Below are positions 2,998 through 36,903 of a DNA stretch of 45,439 nucleotides, one piece after another. A program made the position numbers and the translations under genes. Position 1 is the stretch's first letter; each line of letters starts with the position of its first letter. The notes under the pieces are model-generated. The model was not told the DNA's origin. It searched no databases and was given only the letters and a program-made list of their open reading frames with translations. This DNA is from Candidatus Pacearchaeota archaeon CG1_02_32_21 (lineage in GTDB: Archaea > Nanobdellota > Nanobdellia > Pacearchaeales > GW2011-AR1). The stretch covers positions 1 to 45,439 of the forward strand of contig MNVX01000021.1 in NCBI GenBank assembly GCA_001872185.1. The letters are read 5' to 3'.

Positions 2998-3277
2998 TTT
3001 TCTTTTCACCTCCCTTTTCAATTTTTTTAATGTCTTTGAGTGCAATAGTACCTCTTCTAACGTGGCCTAACCTTTCTTGTTCTGCCATATAATCCTCCCA
3101 GTCAAGAGATTTTAGGCCAGTCTTAGCATAATCCCATAAGATGTCACAAATTGCTTCTTTGTATCCAGCAAGGTACATAACTGGAGCTATTCCAGATTTA
3201 GTTTGAATCTCTCTAACTAACCTGTCAACTGCAATATTAATTAAACGATTATCAATCTCTTTTTGCATTCCCATCAC
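2987..3277 (-). CDS. Hypothetical protein (mobile-element operon)
   Basis: 96-aa ORF whose track start is GTG; ATGs at 3274 and 3268 follow a GAGGTGA. No recognisable motif. Confidence 0.5.
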   Translation of the reverse strand: MMGMQKEIDNRLINIAVDRLVREIQTKSGIAPVMYLAGYKEAICDILWDYAKTGLKSLDWEDYMAEQERLGHVRRGTIALKDIKKIEKGGEKKNEV

Positions 3278-3401
3278 CTCTGTTTCTAATATCTATTTTG
3301 TCTGGTTTTATGATCTGCTGGATTTCTATGATACGTGCAATAACTCTGTCTATAACTTCACCAAAATTATCACTAGAATGATTGATATTTATGGTGCTCA
3401 T
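3252..3401 (-). CDS. Hypothetical 49-aa protein
   Basis: Manual translation MSTININHSSDNFGEVIDRVIARIIEIQQIIKPDKIDIRNRGDGNAKRD. Its ATG makes an ATGA overlap with the upstream gene's stop, and GGTGA lies upstream. It is below the ORF-track size cut-off. Confidence 0.4.
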   Translation of the reverse strand: MSTININHSSDNFGEVIDRVIARIIEIQQIIKPDKIDIRNRGDGNAKRD

Positions 3402-3535
3402 CTTTTCACCTTCTTCTTTAAATAGTAATCATGGCGCTTGCAAAAAGGACATTCTCGGGGAAGACCTCTTGTTCTTGGTATCCAGACATACCTACAAAGC
3501 CTGCATCGTATCTTATTTCCTAATTTTGTTTTCAT
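3398..3535 (-). CDS. Small zinc-ribbon protein, first gene of the element operon
   Basis: Manual translation MKTKLGNKIRCRLCRYVWIPRTRGLPRECPFCKRHDYYLKKKVKR. The CxxC-x3-W-x-PR-x7-CPxCK pattern matches the paralog at 22903-23109. Confidence 0.55.
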   Translation of the reverse strand: MKTKLGNKIRCRLCRYVWIPRTRGLPRECPFCKRHDYYLKKKVKR

Positions 3536-3683: not shown

Positions 3684-4574
3684 ATGCTAAAGAAACAAGG
3701 TTTAGAATATATAAGAAAAGGTAAGGGGGTAGAAATAGCCAGGCATTTCTTTAGAGAATATACGACTGCTTCTAAGATAAGTAAAAATGTTTATTCAAAG
3801 ACTGTTGAAATATACAAACGAAAAACGAAAAAATCTAGCTGGTCTATGCCCCTAGTTAACGAATTTTCTATTAAATGGAGAAAGTTGGGATATTTTTCCA
3901 CAGCAATCTTTCCTCAAGAATATAGGAGATATGGCAAAACACATTATGAAACACGCCTCCATTACATGTTGAATCTTTATCCGTTGTTTGATTTTTATAA
4001 GGAGGAAATTAATTCGGAGGGGTTTACAGAAAGTGAAAAGAGTATTTTAACATGGATATTTTATCCGATTAATACAAGAAGGGAGATACTAGATTTATAC
4101 TCAAAAGATATAGATATTATTACAGCGATTATGAAGTTTTATATGGGTGTTCTTTTTATTCCTTCGCTATCAGCAAAAAGAAGGATTATCCTTAGAAGAT
4201 ATAAAAATAGATTCCCTTCAAGAAAATTCTTTCAATTTTTAGCTACTAAAATAGTTCAAAGAGGGGATACAAAAAAACTAAATGTTAAGCAATACAAAAC
4301 AATAAACAACGCTGAAGCATTAAAGGTCAAAGAAAAAGAAAATAGTTTTGAGTACTATTTAAGTAAAAATCATAAATTTATTGAATTATATGAATCTTCC
4401 TCGCGGGCGATTTACACAAAGAAAAATAATACAACTGAATTAGTCGCACCACACAGAAAATTTGATTCTTTTTACTTAGCACATTACTTATACTTACATG
4501 AGTGTTTACCAAAAATAATGAAAGAATTAGATAAGAAAATGCTTCAAGCATTAGGAATTTATTTTGAATATTAA
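3684..4574 (+). CDS. Hypothetical basic protein (element-encoded)
   Basis: 296-aa ORF with no recognisable motif, convergent with the integrase (4-nt overlap of the 3' ends). Confidence 0.6.
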   Translation: MLKKQGLEYIRKGKGVEIARHFFREYTTASKISKNVYSKTVEIYKRKTKKSSWSMPLVNEFSIKWRKLGYFSTAIFPQEYRRYGKTHYETRLHYMLNLYPLFDFYKEEINSEGFTESEKSILTWIFYPINTRREILDLYSKDIDIITAIMKFYMGVLFIPSLSAKRRIILRRYKNRFPSRKFFQFLATKIVQRGDTKKLNVKQYKTINNAEALKVKEKENSFEYYLSKNHKFIELYESSSRAIYTKKNNTTELVAPHRKFDSFYLAHYLYLHECLPKIMKELDKKMLQALGIYFEY

Positions 4575-5707
4575 TTTCTACTCTGTTTAATTAATAATAA
4601 TTCCTTCCTTAAATTTTCTAATTCACCAGCTACAAGGTTAAGTTTATCAGTTGCCATTTGTCTTTCATATTTTTCTTTAGATAAATCTGCTTTCATTTCA
4701 GATAAGTCTGTGTTTAAAACTTTAGCATCTACATCTTCTAAAATAATTCCTTTCCTTGCGATATAGACGTCGGGCATCGGGCTACTAAAATTCCACCCAA
4801 AATAAAAACACATTTGGTTTCTATTAAGTCTATTACTTATCCATGTTGCACAAGATGATCTAAATAAGTGAAAATGAATATCCCGGTCGAGAATTTGTTT
4901 TCCCAATCTTGCTAACTTTTTTCTAGCGGTTGATGAACCCTTTACAAAAACAGCCTCTTCTGGTTTAATACCTTGTTTAATTCTTTCGTCTAAGAATTCT
5001 TTAACTGCATCTAATGCGTTTTTGTAATACAAAGAAATTGTTCTTCCTTTTGTTTTTGAGAATTCTTCTCTTAAAGTTAATTTGACAAAATTTTCATCTC
5101 CTTTTGGTAATTGTATATCAGACCTACGGATGTTATAAAATTCTCCTCTTCTTGCACCAGAAGAAAATAATACTGCGATCAAAAAACGCTCTTCTGCATT
5201 TTTACAACCTTGATAAAGTGCATCTACTTCTTCCTCTGTCAAAAACTTTGGAGTTCTTTGTTTCTGTCTTGTTCTGACTTTTAAATTTTTTACAAACTTA
5301 AGCGCTTTCAAATCATCTCCTAATCTCCATCCAATATATTGGGATAATATTCTTCTAATCTGAACTTTAATTCCTTCAGATAGGGGAGTTCCAATAACTT
5401 TTCCATTAGGTGCTTTTCTTTCTGACTTAAGTTTATCTTTTAACAAAGCCATAGATAAATTATCAATATCTTTTTCTGTAAGTTGTTCTGAGGGTTTATT
5501 AAGAAATTCTAATCCTCTTTTTAGATAATAAGTATAAGGTTCTAAACTCCCCCTTTCAGCAACTCGATTGGTAATCTTTCCAAGTTCATAATCTCTAAAA
5601 AAATCTTTTACAAATTTCTTCTCTTTTTGAGGGATTTTCCACTTCTCTACCCTCAATAAAAGTTGTTCGTAAATTTCCTTTCTTAATCTAATCCTCTTTT
5701 CTACCAT
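4571..5707 (-). CDS. Tyrosine recombinase / integrase
   Basis: Motifs SGARRGEF (box I Arg), HFHLFRSSCATW (H-x-x-R) and a C-terminal W..DVYIARKG (Tyr); coiled-coil tail. TTTAAATA lies 21 nt upstream of the ATG. Confidence 0.85.
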   Translation of the reverse strand: MVEKRIRLRKEIYEQLLLRVEKWKIPQKEKKFVKDFFRDYELGKITNRVAERGSLEPYTYYLKRGLEFLNKPSEQLTEKDIDNLSMALLKDKLKSERKAPNGKVIGTPLSEGIKVQIRRILSQYIGWRLGDDLKALKFVKNLKVRTRQKQRTPKFLTEEEVDALYQGCKNAEERFLIAVLFSSGARRGEFYNIRRSDIQLPKGDENFVKLTLREEFSKTKGRTISLYYKNALDAVKEFLDERIKQGIKPEEAVFVKGSSTARKKLARLGKQILDRDIHFHLFRSSCATWISNRLNRNQMCFYFGWNFSSPMPDVYIARKGIILEDVDAKVLNTDLSEMKADLSKEKYERQMATDKLNLVAGELENLRKELLLIKQSRN

Positions 5708-5742
5708 AAAGCGATTTAAACTTTAAACTATTTAAACTTTAT

Positions 5743-5768
5743 TATAGTGTCCTAAAAGGGACACTATA
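5743..5768. repeat. Perfect 10-bp-stem palindrome TATAGTGTCC-TAAAAG-GGACACTATA
   Basis: Read directly; it lies 36 nt upstream of the integrase start codon. Confidence 0.8.
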
Positions 5769-5824
5769 TTATTGTAATAGTGGAAATGGTAAACCTGCAA
5801 AAAAATTTAATTCAGAAAACAATA

Positions 5825-7061: not shown

Positions 7062-7682
7062 TTAATGACTGGTCAAATGAATGTCTTCTTTTATCATTTT
7101 CACAATTTCTGGGAATTTAGATATCTTAAAATGGCCATTCTTACTTTTGTATATTATAACTTTTGCACTTCTTAGTTTAGTTTTATATTTCTCGGCATGG
7201 GATATTGGAACAGTACCATCATCTTTTGAAAATAACAAACTAACTTTTTTACAGTTCTTATCGATCATTGATAGGTCTGACTTAAGTTTAAATCCTCCAA
7301 CTAAATCTTCTCCTTCAATCGTGTTGTCAAATGGAGGACAAATTAAATAAATTGATTTTATCTTTTTAGGAAATTTATTTTCTGACAAGTATTTTGCAAG
7401 AAAAATTCCTCCTAGTGATAAACCAATCAGTATAATGTTTCTTCTAAAATAAGGTAAATATCTTTCAAAATGAATTCTCCACTCATCATACTTTGCATTT
7501 TCTTTTAAAGGCATACTTAATCTAATAATCTCAAAATGTTCTCCTAGATTTTTATCTAAATATAATTCATTCCACCTTATTTTCTTCTCAATAGATATCT
7601 TTCTGCTCTTTAGAAAATCTAAATAATCTCTTTTATTTTTAAAAGTAGTTCCTCCATTGATTAATACTATTTGGGTTTTCAT
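7062..7682 (-). CDS. Alpha/beta-fold serine hydrolase (YdeN/RBBP9-like)
   Basis: 206-aa ORF with a nucleophile elbow GLSLGG and a late D/H (..DDGTVP.., ..NGHF..). AATTTAAA lies 21 nt upstream. Confidence 0.65.
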   Translation of the reverse strand: MKTQIVLINGGTTFKNKRDYLDFLKSRKISIEKKIRWNELYLDKNLGEHFEIIRLSMPLKENAKYDEWRIHFERYLPYFRRNIILIGLSLGGIFLAKYLSENKFPKKIKSIYLICPPFDNTIEGEDLVGGFKLKSDLSMIDKNCKKVSLLFSKDDGTVPISHAEKYKTKLRSAKVIIYKSKNGHFKISKFPEIVKMIKEDIHLTSH

Positions 7683-7781
7683 ACTACTTTATGGAGATTC
7701 TAATTTAAATTTCTATCTCTTTTTAAATAAGACTTTCACTTTGAAACTATTATTTAACTAAATTGACATAACTAAATAAAA

Positions 7782-21475: not shown

Positions 21476-21496
21476 GGGAGTGTCGCAGATTAGGGA
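21476..21496 (+). repeat. Left terminal inverted repeat (IRL) GGGAGTGTCGCAGATTAGGGA
   Basis: Matches the reverse complement of 25165-25185. It contains the transposase stop codon and is preceded by the 9-bp target duplication. Confidence 0.75.
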
Positions 21497-22728
21497 GTTA
21501 TCATCATTTTCTCCTCTCCTGTCACATTGCGGGAGTTTTTTAATTTAATTGCATTTAATAGCATAGTTTCCCAAGCATTTCCATTTATTCCTATTCCACA
21601 TTTATCAGCAGGAGTTAAGTTTTCTCTTGCGTTTTTTCTAACAAAGTTATGAAATACCTTAAACCCGTCTTGATATTCTTGAACTTTTGTAACTCCTCGC
21701 CTTACTTTGTGAAACTCTTTTTGATGTGAGTGATGGCTTTCTATTGCGTTGTTGTTTACAGCTTTTCTCTGTCCTTTGATTGAAGTAAACTTGACCTTTC
21801 TTTCATTGCCCCAATTTCTAAAAGTTTTTCTACATCCATCTTCATAACCTTTGTAACCATCAACGATTATCTGAAAAGGTATTTTTCCGTTTTGTTTGTA
21901 TGCTTCTGTAAAAACTTTCTGTGCGTCTTTGCTACTTCGGCTTCTGCCAGAATTTATAGAGGCAAGTAAAAATTTAGTTTTATTATCCATTACATTCCAA
22001 ACATAATCATAATTTCCAGTAAGATTACCTTTTTCTTTTCCTCTCTTGCTTAAAACCAAAGTTTCATCAGCGTTCCAAACCCCAGAAGTTTTAGGAGTTA
22101 GAGTTTTGCTATATTTTTCCATAACTTCTGTAAATCTTAAAACCCATCTTCTTATTGTTTCGTGATGTAATTTTAATCCATAGAATTGATTAAATTGGTC
22201 TGCAATATCCCTATAAGATAATCCTTTGTAATAGCAATCCATAGCCAAACAAACAAGTTTAGCATTTCCTTTAATGTATTTAATTGGTTCTAAAACAAAT
22301 CTCTTTTTACAATCCTTACAGCTAAATCTTTGTTTATCGCTTGTTTTATCGTGCCTTACTCCTCTTTTGATTAAATTTTGAGATTGGCAGTAGGGACAGC
22401 AGTTTTCAGTTGGTTTTTCTAAAATTAATTCTATTTCTTGTTTTATTGGTGTAGCTTCAATTTCATAATGATTTTTTAGTTTTTCAAATATTAGAATAGC
22501 TTTGATATGTTTGCAGTATAATCCTTTTCCCTTACATCTTAATTCAAAATCCTTACAATTACAAGAATAACTATCAAAATGAGTAACTTGATATTTTTTA
22601 TTGCTATCAAATTGAGAAGGAACTAAGTAAGTATTCTCATCTAAACATTCTGGTTTAGAGTTTTCTAATATCTGTCTTGCTCTTTGCTCTCTCTTATCTG
22701 AAAGTTGTTTTATTGTTTGTGTTATCAT
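21490..22728 (-). CDS. DDE transposase (IS6/IS240-like core) with N-terminal SWIM zinc finger and IS1-style zinc ribbon
   Basis: SWIM: YSCNCKDFELRCKGKGLYCKHIKA. Ribbon: CCPYC..QRFSCKDCKKRF. DDE core: VWNADETLV / IIVDGYKGY / NNNAIESHHSHQKEF. Confidence 0.85.
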   Translation of the reverse strand: MITQTIKQLSDKREQRARQILENSKPECLDENTYLVPSQFDSNKKYQVTHFDSYSCNCKDFELRCKGKGLYCKHIKAILIFEKLKNHYEIEATPIKQEIELILEKPTENCCPYCQSQNLIKRGVRHDKTSDKQRFSCKDCKKRFVLEPIKYIKGNAKLVCLAMDCYYKGLSYRDIADQFNQFYGLKLHHETIRRWVLRFTEVMEKYSKTLTPKTSGVWNADETLVLSKRGKEKGNLTGNYDYVWNVMDNKTKFLLASINSGRSRSSKDAQKVFTEAYKQNGKIPFQIIVDGYKGYEDGCRKTFRNWGNERKVKFTSIKGQRKAVNNNAIESHHSHQKEFHKVRRGVTKVQEYQDGFKVFHNFVRKNARENLTPADKCGIGINGNAWETMLLNAIKLKNSRNVTGEEKMMITP

Positions 22729-22752
22729 TTTTTTTATTTCCTTATTTATCTA

Positions 22753-22815
22753 TATACTATTTAGGTATATAGAGTATTTAAATATTATTGTAGTAGACTA
22801 TACTATTTAGGTATA
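22753..22815. repeat. Two identical 17-bp direct repeats TATACTATTTAGGTATA (each an inverted TATAC/GTATA pair)
   Basis: Copies at 22753-22769 and 22799-22815, in the divergent transposase/cargo intergenic region. Copy 1 overlaps the predicted transposase TATA box (22750-22757). Confidence 0.8.
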
Positions 22816-22902
22816 CCCTTTTTTATATATGTTTAATCCTGTATATAACAAAAGGTTTATATAGTAGTGTCACTTTAAAATACTGAGGTTAATTATATAA
22901 AC

Positions 22903-23109
22903 ATGGCAGAACGCAGTATTAGTATGAAAAAAGAGGAATTTGGAGTAAATGTTCTTATAGTGGGTCATAGATGTTGGCGTTGTAAACACGCTTGGGTTCC
23001 TCGTGATATAGGAGAAATACCTGAAATTTGTCCTAAATGTAAAAGTCCATATTGGAAAAAACCTAAGACTTTATTTAAAAAAGGAGAGAAGAAAAATGGA
23101 AAAAAATAA
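22903..23109 (+). CDS. Small zinc-ribbon protein, first gene of the cargo operon
   Basis: HRCWRCKHAWVPRDIGEIPEICPKCKSPYWKKP with a Lys-rich tail. GAGGT lies 13 nt upstream, and the ORF overlaps the methyltransferase start by 14 nt. Confidence 0.7.
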   Translation: MAERSISMKKEEFGVNVLIVGHRCWRCKHAWVPRDIGEIPEICPKCKSPYWKKPKTLFKKGEKKNGKK

Positions 23110-24307
23110 TCATCTTAATACTATCCTTGAAAAAAGTAAGAAACATTTGATATTAGAATTTGGAGAAGCGGAAGCTCAAGAATTTATAAAAGAAGTTAAA
23201 TTAAAAATAAATTCTAAAGAAACTAAGGAGATTATCCAGCAGTTTAATGAAATATATGTAAAAAAAATAAAACAGAAATATCAAAAAGAAACAAGCCCAG
23301 AATATGATAAAAAATTATTTAGCTTCATAAAAAAAGATAATAAGAAAATAAAAATAGTTTGGGGGGATTGTTATGAAAACTTAAAAAAGTTACCTTCTGA
23401 AAGTGTGCATTTAATGGTTACTTCTCCACCTTACTATAATGCAAGAGAATACTCTCAATATGGAGATTTAAATAAATATCTTGATGATATGAAAAAAATA
23501 ATTTCTGAATGTTATAGAGTTTTAGACAATCATCATGTATTTGTTTTTAATGTTGGAGATATATTTGATAATGATAATATTACTACTAAATCAGTTTGGG
23601 GAGATAGAAGATTACCTCTTGGTGCTTACTTCATAAAAATATTTGAAGAAGTGGGTTTTACTTTTGTAGATGATTTTATCTGGGATAAAGGAGAAGTCCA
23701 AAGCGAAAGACATAAAAATGGAAATAATCCTTATCCATTTTATCAATATCCTATGAATTGCTATGAACATATTTTAATATTTCATAAGCATAGATTAGAT
23801 AATACTCATTTTCCTTGTCCTGTTTGTGGAACATTACAAGTAAATAGCAACACCCAATCAGAAATAGGTTTAATGTCTTGGGAATGTAAAAATTTAGAAT
23901 GTTTTGAAAGAAGTGCAAGTGATAGAGGCAAAAGATTTTCATTAAAAACAAATATGACACAAAGCCCATTAATTAGGGAAGGAAACGAAGTTCCACATGA
24001 TTTAATTAAAAAGTGGAGAAGGGATATAATTAAATTTTCTCCTGTAATAAAAATAAATAGTAAGGGAGAAAATAAATTAGGACATACTGCACCATTCCCA
24101 GAGGATATACCTGAAATAGCAGTTTGGTTTTATTCATATAAAGGAGATATAGTTTTAGACCCTTTTGCAGGGAGTTTTACAACTGCAATAGTTTCTAATA
24201 AATTAGGTAGAATAGGGGTAGGTATGGAATTAAGAAAAGATTTATTTGAAAATGCAATAAAGGATAATCTTAATAAAAAAGAACAGGATTTTGAGGAATT
24301 TAATTAA
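23096..24307 (+). CDS. DNA methyltransferase, beta-class N4/N6 family (motif IV SPPY before motif I)
   Basis: LMVTSPPYYNAREY (motif IV) ... VLDPFAGSFTTAIV (motif I, FxGxG-like). A Cys4 ribbon CPVCG...ECKNLEC lies between them. Confidence 0.88.
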   Translation: MEKNNHLNTILEKSKKHLILEFGEAEAQEFIKEVKLKINSKETKEIIQQFNEIYVKKIKQKYQKETSPEYDKKLFSFIKKDNKKIKIVWGDCYENLKKLPSESVHLMVTSPPYYNAREYSQYGDLNKYLDDMKKIISECYRVLDNHHVFVFNVGDIFDNDNITTKSVWGDRRLPLGAYFIKIFEEVGFTFVDDFIWDKGEVQSERHKNGNNPYPFYQYPMNCYEHILIFHKHRLDNTHFPCPVCGTLQVNSNTQSEIGLMSWECKNLECFERSASDRGKRFSLKTNMTQSPLIREGNEVPHDLIKKWRRDIIKFSPVIKINSKGENKLGHTAPFPEDIPEIAVWFYSYKGDIVLDPFAGSFTTAIVSNKLGRIGVGMELRKDLFENAIKDNLNKKEQDFEEFN

Positions 24308-25153
24308 TTATTCTAAGGTTTTAAAGTTATTTTCAAATTTTTTCCATTTTCCATAATCTTTAGAACTGAAATGTTGTCTATCTTGGTCTTTTAAAAAAGA
24401 TGTTCCTTTCATTGAATTACCCATAGTTTTAATAAAATCTTGAACAGACATAACTAAAAAATTAGGTTTATCATTATCATCTATTAAACACCAAATAAAG
24501 AAATGGTCTTTAGATAATATCATATCTCTTGGTTTATGGTCTGTTGCATAGGTATTTTTTGATTTTTCTCCAATATATTCTACTCTTGAAGATTTTACTT
24601 GTATTGACCTAAATTTAGTTTTATATTCTTTAGAACCACAATCACAATAATAATTAATTAACTTTACTTCTCCGCCACACTTATCACAAGTAGGAATAAG
24701 AGTAAAATTATCTACTCCTTTATTGTCACATTTTTTACAATTTGTGCTACTTCCTTCTGTTTTTGTTTTACACTTATTACATATTTTTATAGGTTTAATA
24801 TTTCTCTTTTCAGTTTTAGAAAAGTCTTTATGGCATTTATCACAAATTAAAGAAGGTGTCATAGCCCAATTCTTACCACATTTAGCACAAGCATATTTAT
24901 GTGCAATAATATCAATATATTCGTCATACATAGGACTATACACATTCCAACCATGTTTAGATAATTCAAAAGAAACCAAAAACTCACCATATCTTGAAAA
25001 GTGTTTTACATTCAAATCCGAAGTGGTTTTATATTGTCCTTCTTGAGTTTCTTCTGAATCTTCATTTTCTATATTATCTCCCACTAATCCCTTTTCCATG
25101 AATTTACAACAGAAATCTAATATAAAAACTTTCCTAAGTCCCTCATGCGACAC
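24308..25153 (-). CDS. Putative PD-(D/E)xK restriction endonuclease interrupted by three zinc ribbons
   Basis: GEFLVSFELSKHGWNVYSPMYDEYIDIIAH ... IQVKSS (D...QxK-type nuclease motifs), separated by six CxxC-type pairs. It lies tail-to-tail with the methyltransferase with 0-nt spacing. The track start is GTG 25153; ATG 25099 is an alternative. Confidence 0.6.
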   Translation of the reverse strand: MSHEGLRKVFILDFCCKFMEKGLVGDNIENEDSEETQEGQYKTTSDLNVKHFSRYGEFLVSFELSKHGWNVYSPMYDEYIDIIAHKYACAKCGKNWAMTPSLICDKCHKDFSKTEKRNIKPIKICNKCKTKTEGSSTNCKKCDNKGVDNFTLIPTCDKCGGEVKLINYYCDCGSKEYKTKFRSIQVKSSRVEYIGEKSKNTYATDHKPRDMILSKDHFFIWCLIDDNDKPNFLVMSVQDFIKTMGNSMKGTSFLKDQDRQHFSSKDYGKWKKFENNFKTLE

Positions 25154-25274: not shown

Positions 25275-26228
25275 ATGGCAAAGCTATCAAGACCGAGAAG
25301 AGGAAGTTTGCAGTATTGGCCCCGAAAACGGGCTAAAAAACTGATTCCTAGTGTTAACTGGACAATTATTTCTTCAAAGAATTCTGATAAACAAATTTTA
25401 GGTTTTATAGGTTATAAGGTTGGCATGGCCAGTGCTTATGTTAAAGACAACACAGCTGATTCTATGACTAAAAGTAAAAGAATTAGCATTCCTGTTACGA
25501 TCATTGAATGCCCTAAACTAAAAATACTTTCTACAAGATTTTACAAAAATGGGCAGGTTATTGGTGAAGTTGTAAATAAAAACTTAAACAAAGAGCTTGT
25601 GAGGAAAATAAAGATTCCAAAAAAGATATCTAAAAAAATTGAAGATTACAAAGATTATGATGATATAAGAATTGTTGTTTATACTGACCTTAAGAATTTC
25701 ATCAAAAAAAATCCTGATATACTTGAAGTGAGCCTTGGAGGGAGTTTAGAAAATAAATTATCTTTTGTTAAAGAGCATATTGACAAAACAATAAGCGTTT
25801 CGGAGGCACTTCAACAGGGACAGTTAATTGATGTTAAAGCAGTTACAAAAGGTAAGGGGTTACAGGGACCTGTCAAAAGATTTGGAGCAGGATTAAGACA
25901 GCACAAGGCTGAAAAGGGAGTTAGAAAAATAGGGTCTATTGGACCATGGCATCCTTCAAGGGTTAGTTTTAGAGTTCCAATGGCTGGACAGATGGGATTT
26001 TTTAATAGAATACAATATAATAATAAAATTGTTTTTGTGAGCAATACTTTTGATAATAACATCAATCCTTCTGGAGGATTTAATCATTTTGGTAACATAC
26101 AGGGTGATTATATTCTTGTTACGGGAAGTGTGCAGGGACCTGCAAAAAGACAGCTTGTTATAACCCATCCATTAAGAGCAACAAAAAAACAATCTAAAAA
26201 AAATTACGAGTTTATTGAACTAAGATGA
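25275..26228 (+). CDS. rpl3: Ribosomal protein uL3
   Basis: MAKLSRPRRGSLQYWPRKRA..; 317 aa; first gene of the conserved operon. Confidence 0.95.
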   Translation: MAKLSRPRRGSLQYWPRKRAKKLIPSVNWTIISSKNSDKQILGFIGYKVGMASAYVKDNTADSMTKSKRISIPVTIIECPKLKILSTRFYKNGQVIGEVVNKNLNKELVRKIKIPKKISKKIEDYKDYDDIRIVVYTDLKNFIKKNPDILEVSLGGSLENKLSFVKEHIDKTISVSEALQQGQLIDVKAVTKGKGLQGPVKRFGAGLRQHKAEKGVRKIGSIGPWHPSRVSFRVPMAGQMGFFNRIQYNNKIVFVSNTFDNNINPSGGFNHFGNIQGDYILVTGSVQGPAKRQLVITHPLRATKKQSKKNYEFIELR

Positions 26229-26563
26229 AAATGAAAAGAACATTGCCTCACCAAAATCCATTAGAACATGCGAATGTATATTTGAATAAAGCTGAAGAAT
26301 TATTAATCGGATACTCTAGCAATCATAATATTCCTAGAATCATAAAAAATCAATATAAAATTTTAAGAGAACTTGCAGAAAGTTTTGGTGCAGAAGTTTC
26401 TGGATTACCAGAAAGATTAGATATGTTAGACAGGACTGAAGAGTTTGTAGCTGAATATAGAGAACCTGCTATTGAAATGGTTGAAGAAACTCGTGAGAGA
26501 TTATTTGATCCAAAAATACCAAGTTCATGGGAGGACTTACCGGATAAGTATTCTATAAGATGA
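26225..26563 (+). CDS. Acidic hypothetical protein inserted between L3 and L4
   Basis: 112-aa ORF with ATGA overlaps to both the L3 stop and the L4 start. No r-protein-like basic character and no recognisable motif. Confidence 0.6.
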   Translation: MKMKRTLPHQNPLEHANVYLNKAEELLIGYSSNHNIPRIIKNQYKILRELAESFGAEVSGLPERLDMLDRTEEFVAEYREPAIEMVEETRERLFDPKIPSSWEDLPDKYSIR

Positions 26564-27366
26564 AATCACAAATAATATCAATAGAGGGTAAAAAGATAAA
26601 AGATATAGAACTTCCAAAAGTTTTTTCCAGCAAAATAAGGGAAGATATCTTAAAAAAAACATTTGAGTCTGAACAAATAGCTCATCCATACGGACCTTCA
26701 TTCGTTGCTGGAAGACAACACTCTGCATCTGGAATAATCAGGCACATAAGACATAAATGGAAATCAGGTTATGGAAGAGGAATGTCTAGGATACCTAGAA
26801 AAATACATTGGAGAAGAGGTACACAATTCTACTGGATAGGTGCAGAAGTTTCTGGAACTAGGGGTGGTAGAAGAGCTCATGGGCCAAGACCTGAAGGAAC
26901 AGTGCAAATAAGAAAAATAAACAAGAAAGAAAGAAAACTTGCAATATTTTCGGCTATAGCAGCGACAGCTTCTTCAGACAAAGTAATTGGAAGATATAAC
27001 AGGATTGATGAGATTAAGGAAGTTGCACTACCTGTAATTGTAGAGTCAAAAATATCAGAGTTAAAAACAAAGGAATTAATTAACGCTCTTGACAAAATAC
27101 TTGGCAAGTTAAGTATACAAAAGGAAAAAAATTATCGCTCTGGTAAGGGCAAGTTAAGAAATAGAAAGTACAAGAATTCAAGAGGCCTAATTATTATAAC
27201 TGGAAATGATGAAAAAATCAAGACAGATATGATAGAAAGTGTAAGGGTAAAGGGCCTAATGGTGAGTGATTTATACCCTAGTGGAAGAATAGCTGTTTAT
27301 ACTGAAAAGGCAATTAAAGACTTAGAGAATATAGATAAAGTTAATGCAGGAGTAAAGGAAAAATGA
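26560..27366 (+). CDS. rpl4: Ribosomal protein uL4
   Basis: ..GRQHSASGIIRHIRHKWKSGYGRGMSRIPRK..RRAHGP.. is typical of archaeal L4. Confidence 0.93.
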   Translation: MKSQIISIEGKKIKDIELPKVFSSKIREDILKKTFESEQIAHPYGPSFVAGRQHSASGIIRHIRHKWKSGYGRGMSRIPRKIHWRRGTQFYWIGAEVSGTRGGRRAHGPRPEGTVQIRKINKKERKLAIFSAIAATASSDKVIGRYNRIDEIKEVALPVIVESKISELKTKELINALDKILGKLSIQKEKNYRSGKGKLRNRKYKNSRGLIIITGNDEKIKTDMIESVRVKGLMVSDLYPSGRIAVYTEKAIKDLENIDKVNAGVKEK

Positions 27367-29942: not shown

Positions 29943-30138
29943 AGAACTATCAAAACTTGGGAAAAATGATATTAACAAGAAAAAAATGGAAATTGAAATG
30001 GAAATTATAAAGGCAAGAGTAACTGCAAGCAAGGGCGGAAAAGTTAAAATAAAAGAATTAAAGAAAACTCTTGCAAATTTGAAAACACTCAACAAACAAA
30101 ACAATGGAGATAGATCCAAAAACAGGGTTGCCAGTTGA
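29929..30138 (+). CDS. rpl29: Ribosomal protein uL29
   Basis: 69-aa helical protein, ..IKELKKTLANLKT..; operon position. Confidence 0.9.
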   Translation: MKRFKELSKLGKNDINKKKMEIEMEIIKARVTASKGGKVKIKELKKTLANLKTLNKQNNGDRSKNRVAS

Positions 30139-30403
30139 GGCTATAGCGTGGGAAGACCTCTCACGAGGCGAACAGAGAATCCAAGTAACAACAGCCAAAA
30201 AAAAGTTTGGCAAAAGTGTTACAATAGTGTCGGGATTTGACAGAGGAACTGACCTCAAAAGAATAGCTAAGGAGCTTAAGGAAGAGCTTGGTTGTGGAGG
30301 GACAGTAAGAGACGACTCGATAGAGTTGCAGGGAGATCACACAAGAAAGATCAAACCAATCCTTGCGAGACTTGGGTTTTCAGAAAGCACAATCAGCAAC
30401 TAA
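30104..30403 (+). CDS. Translation initiation factor aIF1 (SUI1)
   Basis: ..RIQVTTAKKKFGKSVTIVSGFD....LKEELGCGGTV....IELQGDH.. is a SUI1 signature. Confidence 0.9.
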   Translation: MEIDPKTGLPVEAIAWEDLSRGEQRIQVTTAKKKFGKSVTIVSGFDRGTDLKRIAKELKEELGCGGTVRDDSIELQGDHTRKIKPILARLGFSESTISN

Positions 30404-30417
30404 AACCCCAAAATAAA

Positions 30418-30768
30418 ATGGAAAAGAAAAATAAGAAGACAGACTTGAAAGTCAGAAATAGAGTAGTTGGAACCCGTGGAAGAAAATTTGAAGGACATGT
30501 GATAAGAAAGTTCGATAAAAGGGTAACAATTCAGCTTGAGAGAGTAAAATACATCAGAAAATATGAAAGATATGCTAAATATCAAACTAAAGTACATGCT
30601 TACTTACCTGAAAACATGAAAGAACAAATCCAGATAGGAGATTATATACAAGTAATGGAAACAAGACCTTTAAGCAAGATTATACATCATCTCGTAGTAA
30701 AGAAAATAAGGGACGCTGATATTAAGGCGCAGGCTATAGAGAAACTTAAGGAGCAAACAAAAAAATGA
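30418..30768 (+). CDS. rps17: Ribosomal protein uS17
   Basis: The start is set at ATG 30418 (MEKKNKK..GTRGRKFEGHVIRKFDKRVTIQ..YIRKYERY..). The upstream part of the track ORF overlaps SUI1. Confidence 0.92.
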   Translation: MEKKNKKTDLKVRNRVVGTRGRKFEGHVIRKFDKRVTIQLERVKYIRKYERYAKYQTKVHAYLPENMKEQIQIGDYIQVMETRPLSKIIHHLVVKKIRDADIKAQAIEKLKEQTKK

Positions 30769-31166
30769 CCTCGGGAAAAATAAATGGTTTATATGTTGAA
30801 TTAGAAAACGTAACAAAAGAGTGTGGCGGTTTAGATAATGAGCCATCAAGAGAAATAGTAAGGCAGATAGAAGAAGAAATTGGGTTAAATACAAGAAGAA
30901 TACATGAGGGTATAGCAAAGGTGCATGGACCTTATAGTGACTTTGAAAAGTTAATGGAAGAATATGAAAGGCGTATGATGGAATGTGATGTTGGTGGGGC
31001 AATTAATGTTATAAACAAGTACAGAAATCAGGTTTTAGAAAATGGAGCATTACATTATTTACCAGTATTTACATCTTTAGACAAACATTCATTTAACACC
31101 TCATTACAATTATCAGGGTATGGAGTTCATGATGCATATAAAATAACTGTGGGGTTTTTCGGATGA
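30765..31166 (+). CDS. Acidic hypothetical protein inserted between S17 and L14
   Basis: 133-aa ORF with ATGA overlaps at both ends. AAGGAG lies 11 nt upstream. No recognisable motif. Confidence 0.6.
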   Translation: MTSGKINGLYVELENVTKECGGLDNEPSREIVRQIEEEIGLNTRRIHEGIAKVHGPYSDFEKLMEEYERRMMECDVGGAINVINKYRNQVLENGALHYLPVFTSLDKHSFNTSLQLSGYGVHDAYKITVGFFG

Positions 31167-36302: not shown

Positions 36303-36712
36303 TAGTTGTAATAAGAATAGCAGGGATGGTTAATATGAACAGACCTATGGAAGAAACTTTGTACAGACTTAGATTAAGAAGAAAATATTCATGTATAGTT
36401 GTTTCTGAAAGTAAAGAAGTAATGGGGATGTTAAAAAAAGTCAGGAATCTTGTGTCTTATGAAAAGATAGATGAAAATACTTTGAAAGAGCTTATTAATA
36501 AAAGAGGTCAATCTGAAAATAAAAAAGCAAAAATTAATACTGAAGGAGTAATAAAATATTTTCATGAGAATAAAACTCTTGATGGGTCTGGAATAAAGCC
36601 ATTTTTTAGACTGCATCCTCCAAGGGGAGGAATTAATACTAAATATCATTTTCCAAAAGGAGTTTTAGGTGAGAATAAAGAAATAAATAAATTAATTTTG
36701 AGGATGTTATAA
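36299..36712 (+). CDS. rpl30: Ribosomal protein uL30
   Basis: ..VVIRIAGMVNMNRPMEETLYRLRLRRK..; operon position. Confidence 0.92.
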   Translation: MIVVIRIAGMVNMNRPMEETLYRLRLRRKYSCIVVSESKEVMGMLKKVRNLVSYEKIDENTLKELINKRGQSENKKAKINTEGVIKYFHENKTLDGSGIKPFFRLHPPRGGINTKYHFPKGVLGENKEINKLILRML

Positions 36713-36903
36713 TGATTAAATCTGGTTTTATGTGGGAATGTGAATGCGGAAAAACAATACTTGGAGAAAAATCTCCTGAAGAGTGCAATAAATGCGGAAG
36801 AATTGACAGTTTTGTGCAATTACCAGAAGAAATAGTTGAAGAAAGAGAAAAAGATATGGTTTATGAAAAAGACGAAGATATAGAGGATTATGAAGATGAA
36901 TAA
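36712..36903 (+). CDS. Small rubredoxin-like zinc-ribbon protein with a highly acidic tail, inserted between L30 and L15
   Basis: WECECGKTILGEKSPEECNKCG followed by ..EEIVEEREKDMVYEKDEDIEDYEDE. TAATG overlap with L30, and GAGGA lies 7 nt upstream. Confidence 0.6.
   Translation: MIKSGFMWECECGKTILGEKSPEECNKCGRIDSFVQLPEEIVEEREKDMVYEKDEDIEDYEDE

Follow-up and report, generated by a model that had tools for sequence, protein, structure and literature searches.

We analyzed a 45,439-nt stretch of DNA (the window; contig MNVX01000021.1 of Candidatus Pacearchaeota archaeon CG1_02_32_21) that carries an archaeal ribosomal protein (r-protein) operon, and followed up a short open reading frame (ORF), here called ORFx, lying between the genes for uL3 and uL4 (L3 and L4). 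We tentatively favour the view that ORFx is a genuine accessory protein gene of a small clade, inserted into the uL3/uL4 stop/start junction of this Pacearchaeota (DPANN) operon. That ORFx is a genuine gene, restricted to one clade, fast-evolving, dispensable and translationally chained through L3 and L4 is well supported by the comparisons described below.

Coding potential and conservation of ORFx

The initial annotation described an ORF of 112 codons at 26225..26563 (+), opening with an ATGA over the L3 stop (26225-26228) and closing with an ATGA over the L4 start (26560-26563), and the window sequence reads exactly so. The flanking genes, named there as L3 and L4, are archaeal uL3 and uL4 (Table 1). 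They begin a gene order of L3, ORFx, L4, L23, L2, S19, L22, S3, L29, SUI1, S17, ORFy, L14, L24, S4e, L5, S14, S8, L6, L32e, L19e, L18, S5, L30, a 63-aa ORF, L15 and SecY, and the closest database matches are groundwater genomes of Candidatus Pacearchaeota or 'Nanoarchaeota' (DPANN). The length of 112 codons is obtained when ORFx is read from the upstream in-frame ATG at 26225. In two relatives, L006 (86% identical) and L002 (63%; L numbers denote related loci and P numbers proteins), the L3 gene stops with TAA and the ORFx ATG follows 1-2 nt on, at the position equivalent to 26231, which in the window lies 2 nt downstream of the L3 stop codon. The database copy of the ORFx protein, P0001, is annotated at 110 aa, and the same-species contigs L053-L055 have ORFx annotated at 112 aa. 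Because the L006 and L002 homologues begin there and P0001 has 110 aa, we take 26231 as the conserved start, which gives proteins of 110 aa in the window and 107 aa in L002. By the same comparison the ATGA coupling proposed for both sides stands for the L4 side, where the overlap is kept in three lineages (window, L006 and L002), but the overlap on the L3 side is private to the window species. ATGA is found at seven other junctions of this operon, and the ORFx overlap itself is therefore not special.

Searches of 5.8 billion clusters, 1.8 billion representatives and metagenome contigs recovered a family of only five members: the window protein, P0002 (86% identity), P0003 (63%), P0007 (~30%, locus L015) and P0008 (~22-30%, locus L014). 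All five genes are housed at the L3-L4 junction. The alignment among relatives contains a 9-nt indel that is in frame and leaves the reading frame intact, and the pairwise ratio of non-synonymous to synonymous substitution rates (dN/dS) is 0.42-0.56 for ORFx (Fisher p=0.004 for a ratio <1), compared with 0.08-0.11 for L3/L4 in the same genome pairs. Constraint is strongest at the 3' end. The last 20 residues show 0 non-synonymous and 2 synonymous differences, as against a dN of ~0.29 in the remainder of the gene, and a tail motif, L-[FI]-x-P...[WY]-E-[DE]-[LMI]-x-[DK]-[KR], is kept in homologues of 22-28% identity despite differing DNA. The conserved 3' end shows no sign of RNA structure (fold z=0.47), and ORFx has no Rfam match. 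Since the motif persists in distant members with different DNA, the constraint on the tail appears to act on the peptide. Overall these comparisons indicate that ORFx is a genuine protein-coding gene under purifying selection. While a chance ORF in an AT-rich spacer, and thus no gene at all, would account for the complete lack of family or structural matches, it is effectively refuted by five homologues reaching down to 22% identity, the in-frame indel, the dN/dS below 1 and a confidently predicted hairpin (see below), and we regard it as scarcely credible.

Extending the searches did not enlarge the family. With phmmer, the 1.8 billion representatives gave extra matches only of low complexity, in giant proteins, and a profile search together with scans of metagenome and viral contigs found no further members. 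ORFs at L3-L4 in the more distant L027, L028, L029, L033 and L040 were considered as diverged orthologues and rejected for lack of any hmmsearch or hhalign signal. With its narrow clade and its coding selection, ORFx is by these data a taxonomically restricted orphan gene.

Probable junction duplication and translational chaining

ORFx is flanked by two copies of a 10-nt direct repeat, TAAGATGAAA, which occurs in the window only at 26221 and 26556. The same repeat pair, with one mismatch, is present in L006, L002 and L014, where the upstream copy reads TAAGATAAAA; in L014 a remnant, TTAAGATGAAAGC, lies past the ORF's own stop codon and is hence non-coding. In genomes without ORFx the direct L3/L4 junction reads TTAAGATGAAA (stop overlapping start) or TTAAGATAAAATGAAA, and in L010 and L050 it reads TTAAGATGAAATCACAAATA. 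The downstream TAAGATGAAA copy is identical to the intact junction of ORFx-less relatives, and the intact junction of L010 and L050 equals the recombinant of the two ORFx flanks. This arrangement suggests that ORFx was inserted into the coupling junction and that the junction was duplicated. The last ORFx codon (AGA) and stop would then be a copy of the L3 end left behind by the duplication, and recombination between the flanking repeats would lead to clean loss of ORFx and restore the ancestral ATGA junction, exactly the one seen in L010 and L050. The TAAGATGAAA pair is a target-site duplication of the kind by which mobile-element insertions are recognized. Other marks of a mobile element were not found: no ORFx paralogue exists elsewhere in the window, viral contigs carry no copy, all five homologues share one junction, and by eye there is no inverted repeat at the insert ends, where only direct repeats were searched for and no inverted-repeat search was run. 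The initial annotation saw no obvious sign of a recent insertion in the base composition, and the GC content of ORFx (0.321) indeed matches that of the window (0.317), L3 (0.332) and L4 (0.341), but comparison of genomes points to ORFx being a clade-restricted insertion into an otherwise direct L3/L4 junction.

A GGAG-type Shine-Dalgarno sequence is found ~12-17 nt upstream of most genes of the operon. None is present within 25 nt upstream of ORFx or L4, and promoter or terminator signals at ORFx were not in excess over shuffled sequence. Because L4 has no GGAG within these 25 nt, ribosomes probably have to complete ORFx for L4 to be translated. Termination on L3 would be followed by reinitiation on ORFx, termination there and reinitiation on L4. 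In such a relay the output of ORFx would be comparable to that of L3 and L4, and its frame would be locked open because a nonsense mutation in ORFx would be polar on L4. ORFx might then be nothing but a coupling bridge, a frame kept open for ribosomes bound for L4 and encoding a peptide selected merely as harmless and soluble. The L4 gene without a Shine-Dalgarno, overlapping the ORFx stop in three lineages, is consistent with this, as are the clean loss of ORFx in relatives and a dN/dS that is high for an operon gene. We nevertheless find a mere bridge rather improbable, given that the dN/dS is significantly below 1, that the 20-residue tail is free of non-synonymous changes with its motif kept at the protein and not the DNA level, that RNA structure does not explain the 3' conservation, and that a hairpin is confidently predicted from only five sequences.

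The predicted ORFx protein

The predicted product is a cytosolic 110-aa protein in which an N-terminal helical hairpin is followed by a third helix and by a disordered C-terminal peptide of 20 invariant residues. An AlphaFold2 model built with the five-sequence alignment has a mean predicted local distance difference test score (pLDDT) of 69.5; the hairpin is its confident part (Table 1), followed by a weaker third helix (residues 72-91) and a disordered tail (pLDDT ~51). Two motifs of the hairpin region, NPLEHA..YL..AEEL and LAES.G..VSGLPE.L, are conserved in the alignments, and the protein has no hydrophobic segment, signal peptide or membrane segment. It had been described as Glu/Asp-rich and unlike any r-protein. 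With an isoelectric point (pI) of 5.1 and 21 D+E vs 15 K+R it is only mildly acidic, and the window itself encodes an acidic r-protein, P1 (18966-19253); the part of the description that stands is that no r-protein family matches.

The initial annotation was also right that no family can be assigned. At E<=1 the window protein matched 0 Pfam families, and for all five members the best match was irrelevant (E=0.11). The NCBIfam scan returned noise only (E>0.1), a sequence profile search of the PDB gave at best a designed helical protein (E=0.28), and Foldseek of the model found nothing at E<=0.001 in the PDB and only generic helical noise, with no match, in BFVD. PADLOC gave 0 families at E<=1, and the best PHROG match (E=0.0057), obtained for one ORFx family member, was to a family of unknown function. 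Neither observation that the initial annotation named as a refutation was made: relatives keep the reading frame, and the searches turned up no family outside translation. Three specific identities were rejected. A known r-protein family is ruled out by the lack of any Pfam or NCBIfam r-protein profile and by absence from close relatives; a diverged P1 by an hhalign probability of 0.1 against the window's P1 and no PF00428 match; and a diverged copy of L3 or L4 by the fact that all it shares with L4 is GAEVSG, an 18-nt match that is not collinear. This last is an exact repeat, GGTGCAGAAGTTTCTGGA, at 26387-26404 in ORFx and 26839-26856 in L4, coding for GAEVSG in both. In L4 these residues are part of YWIGAEVSG, a motif that is universally conserved. 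The corresponding residues in older ORFx lineages are GEDVSG, with 5 nt differences, and the 18-nt match is absent there. The repeat seems to reflect coincidence or a small patch of gene conversion from L4, and not shared ancestry.

Ribosomal proteins, stalk proteins excepted, are as a rule basic. The initial annotation implied that ORFx is a near-stoichiometric component of the ribosome, and a structural, clade-specific protein of the large subunit would fit the position and coupling between uL3 and uL4, the small size, and the retention at one junction across lineages whose L4 is ~60% identical. ORFx is, however, acidic and unrelated to P1, is missing in close relatives with near-identical r-proteins, evolves fast, matches no Pfam r-protein family and leaves no co-varying trace in L3/L4. 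A new structural r-protein is therefore very unlikely, and that part of the annotation falls.

Possible roles of ORFx

As to function, we prefer a reading in which the product assists translation or the making of ribosomes as a non-essential accessory factor. It would bind either the large subunit or the highly basic uL3 and uL4 in their free form through its C-terminal peptide, and so act as an escort or modulator. Such a docking factor is possible but short of probable. Two observations give it weak support: the long retention of ORFx at one junction in a deletion-prone small genome, and an enrichment of acidic proteins among operon inserts, where 73% of inserted ORFs have a pI<7 vs 28% of other non-r-protein window ORFs (p=4e-4), a background of only 25 ORFs, whose small size counts against the comparison.

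Several further points weigh against the favoured explanation. The dN/dS of ORFx is ~4-5x that of L3/L4, and the constraint that does exist could in part stem from polarity on L4 and from selection to keep an abundantly expressed protein from misfolding. The frame is intact at the junction in four other lineages, but L010 (L3 83%, L4 79% identical) and L050 (85%, 80%) lack the gene, as do L011-L013, L016-L021 and others. Since it is missing from L010, L050 and most other relatives, ORFx is, on this distribution, dispensable. No residue or indel in L3/L4 tracks its presence. Position in the operon is by itself weak evidence of a ribosomal role, because many unrelated ORFs (a DEDDh exonuclease, an HD hydrolase, dozens of orphans) share such junctions; related genomes house there enzymes without an evident ribosomal connection as well as unrelated orphans, so that a place in the operon may bring no more than expression. 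The junction duplication, too, is clear for ORFx only. When 39 ORFs inserted in related genomes were tested for it, the excess was marginal (p ~0.05), and we therefore claim duplication in the case of ORFx and not as a general rule.

In a neighbour-joining tree made from L3+L4+L23+L2, the window, L002 and L010 form one small clade and L014 and L015 another, both inside a wider Pacearchaeota group. The ORFx/L4 divergence ratio, calculated from identities, is similar in near and far pairs (~2.8 and ~2.4), and vertical descent with repeated loss therefore fits. Transfer by recombination through the conserved flanks could also have contributed, and the dispensability of ORFx holds under either.

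To place ORFx among other insertions we took a census of junctions in ~40 related species-level genomes, counting spacers of at least 200 nt among genomes with both genes. At L3-L4 such spacers were found in 10/39 genomes, in line with the initial statement that this junction is normally direct (<200 nt in 29/39). Counts for the other junctions were 6/40 (L4-L23), 13/38 (L23-L2), 5/38 (L2-S19), 4/38 (S19-L22), 7/36 (L22-S3) and 5/22 (S17-L14). Per junction (L3 to S3, plus S17-L14), 10-35% of genomes carry inserted, mostly orphan and mostly acidic ORFs of ~80-220 aa. Among 38 inserted ORFs there are four DEDDh exonucleases, all at L4-L23, one HD-domain hydrolase and one alpha/beta hydrolase read with L22; the remainder match no Pfam family, and between most of the inserts no BLAST similarity is detectable. 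We found no description of such inserts in DPANN r-protein operons in the literature.

The inserts form a mosaic that differs among close relatives. In the window they are ORFx, ORFy and a 63-aa Zn-ribbon ORF, and L002 has five inserts, ORFx and four others. The stretch from L3 to L14 is free of them in L010. L050 carries a different set: an exonuclease, an L22-S3 ORF (52% to that of L002), an ORFy homologue (60%), a 60-aa Zn-ribbon ORF and a 131-aa ORF. This mosaic of unrelated genes, the enzymes among them, the non-homologous ORFs at S17-L14 in two close relatives (window and L002), and the rapid evolution, patchy distribution and lack of co-variation of ORFx with L3/L4 would all be expected of a passenger gene that acts outside translation, in host-cell interaction, mobile-element conflict or a clade-specific cytosolic role, and that, lacking a promoter of its own in a tiny genome, gains expression simply by insertion into an existing, strongly expressed operon. 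We consider a passenger nearly as likely as an accessory factor, which leaves it, too, a possibility without being a probable one. It sits less well with the finding that 5/5 family members are at exactly one junction, with the lack of a signal peptide or membrane segment, and with the lack of any PADLOC defence, PHROG or BFVD phage or other family match and of any viral-contig copy; guilt by association in r-protein operons is, moreover, often informative.

Other inserted ORFs and features of the window

Coordinates of ORFx, of its neighbours and of other features are collected in Table 1.

Table 1. Features of the ORFx locus, of the rest of the window and of related loci (positions are those of the window unless a locus is given)
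Feature	Position	Strand	Description
uL3 gene	25275..26228	+	First gene of the operon; PF00297 at 3.4e-60, TIGR03626
Upstream copy of 10-nt direct repeat TAAGATGAAA	26221..26230	+	L3 final codons, stop and ATG
ORFx coding sequence, conserved start	26231..26563	+	110 aa + stop; based on homologue starts, dN/dS and 9-nt in-frame indel
Predicted antiparallel helical hairpin of ORFx	26258..26383	+	Residues 10-51 (helices 10-28 and 36-51); block pLDDT 87-92 over residues 11-60
Last 20 residues of ORFx, LFDPKIPSSWEDLPDKYSIR	26501..26560	+	Invariant in three lineages; predicted disordered; candidate docking peptide
Downstream copy of TAAGATGAAA	26556..26565	+	ORFx final codons and stop, overlapping L4 ATG
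uL4 gene	26560..27366	+	PF00573, TIGR03672; start overlaps ORFx stop (ATGA)
ORFy	30765-31166	+	133 aa, pI 5.3; at S17-L14; ATGA overlaps on both sides; no Pfam family
63-aa ORF	36712-36903	+	At L30-L15; CxC...CxxC zinc-ribbon-like motif; overlaps both neighbours; no Pfam family
DDE transposase with SWIM finger	21490-22728	-	In island upstream of L3
N6/N4 DNA methyltransferase	23096-24307		In island upstream of L3
DEDDh exonuclease, L017	4452-5105
DEDDh exonuclease, L018	4750-5376
DEDDh exonuclease, L027	2522-3118
DEDDh exonuclease, L038	3465-4094
DEDDh exonuclease, L050	2553-3203

ORFy has only two homologues, of 98% (Pacearchaeota CG10) and 60% (L050) identity, both at S17-L14; the L002 ORF at that junction has 138 aa and is non-homologous to it. 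The AlphaFold model of ORFy is all-helical and poor (pLDDT 58.8). In the 63-aa ORF the tail (MIKSGFMWECECGK...EDIEDYEDE) is very acidic; the ORF is conserved in L053 as well as in L050 (84%). Inserted ORFs of L002 lie at 3067-3420, 4556-4861, 5440-5823 and 7270-7686, and ~30 more are found in L014-L043. Those of L002 at L23-L2 and L22-S3 show weak similarity to each other and to the L23-L2 ORF of L029. The DEDDh (RNase T-like) 3'-5' exonuclease, ~200-217 aa, is present at L4-L23 in several Pacearchaeota/Woesearchaeota with 38-59% mutual identity, and may be an enzyme of RNA processing that the r-protein operon has recruited stably.

Elsewhere in the operon, L22 (28739-29329, +; 196 aa) has an N-terminal extension of ~70 residues that is Lys/Glu-rich and differs in length between relatives, the Pfam domain starting at residue 74. 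The usual place of the archaeal Rpp29 gene is between L29/SUI1 and S17. In the window S17 follows SUI1 almost directly (30403-30418), with no space for this RNase P protein gene. Immediately upstream of the L3 promoter region lies an island (21490-25153) that holds, besides the transposase and methyltransferase of Table 1, a 68-aa Zn-ribbon ORF and, on the minus strand, a 281-aa ORF rich in Cys, possibly a restriction enzyme. We infer that the island is an insertion, because in L001 the 234-aa gene that precedes it is directly followed by L3.

Implications and relation to known systems

Should ORFx and the other inserts prove to bind r-proteins or ribosomes, then the otherwise reduced translation apparatus of DPANN would carry an accessory layer that is lineage-specific and evolves fast, which bears on how ribosomes are built and regulated in ultra-small symbionts. 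In its most general form, this would mean that the r-protein stop/start junctions of Pacearchaeota/Woesearchaeota capture small genes with duplication of the junction, giving fast-turnover, clade-specific ribosome-associated proteins (escorts or modulators of basic r-proteins) across DPANN, a speculation that is unlikely to hold. Even if ORFx is only a passenger, nature here provides a clear case of the cell's most conserved operon recruiting new genes, in which the duplicated coupling junction would keep the essential downstream gene translated and the new frame locked open. As a lead, the insert mosaic of DPANN r-protein operons is more interesting than ORFx alone, and such inserts should be considered when r-protein syntenic blocks serve DPANN binning and phylogenomics.

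ORFx is a case of kinds already known, namely non-ribosomal genes inside the r-protein cluster and orphan genes. The archaeal cluster has long been known to hold non-ribosomal genes for aIF1/SUI1, Rpp29, adenylate kinase and SecY. Enolase lies within a 'ribosomal superoperon' as well (PMC4390880). Like ORFx, embedded genes of this kind, such as SUI1 in the window (30104-30403), are co-oriented, tightly packed between r-protein genes and presumably co-transcribed. They differ in being ancient, widespread members of known families, whereas ORFx is found in five lineages of one Pacearchaeota group, evolves fast and belongs to no family.

Eukaryotes have dedicated r-protein chaperones, Acl4 for uL4 and Rrb1 for uL3, which are acidic, non-ribosomal and shield these very basic r-proteins before assembly. 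ORFx resembles them in being acidic, helical and made beside uL3 and uL4, a functional analogy only, since neither its sequence nor its predicted fold resembles any solved structure and its presence is not mirrored by co-variation in L3/L4. Acl4 and Rrb1 are also far larger than ORFx. The stalk protein P1/aP1 (Ribosomal_60s) shares with ORFx a length of ~100 aa, acidity, N-terminal helices, a flexible region and a highly conserved C-terminal peptide, and ORFx even includes an 'LFD'. The two tails are nevertheless distinct, AEGLSSLFG in P1 and SSWEDLPDKYSIR in ORFx, and ORFx is not beside L10. Finally, ORFx is like other orphan genes in its narrow clade, short length, fast evolution and weak but real purifying selection. 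What sets it apart from them is that it sits in a coupling junction of the most conserved operon, is flanked by a duplicated 10-mer and is part of a mosaic of inserts.

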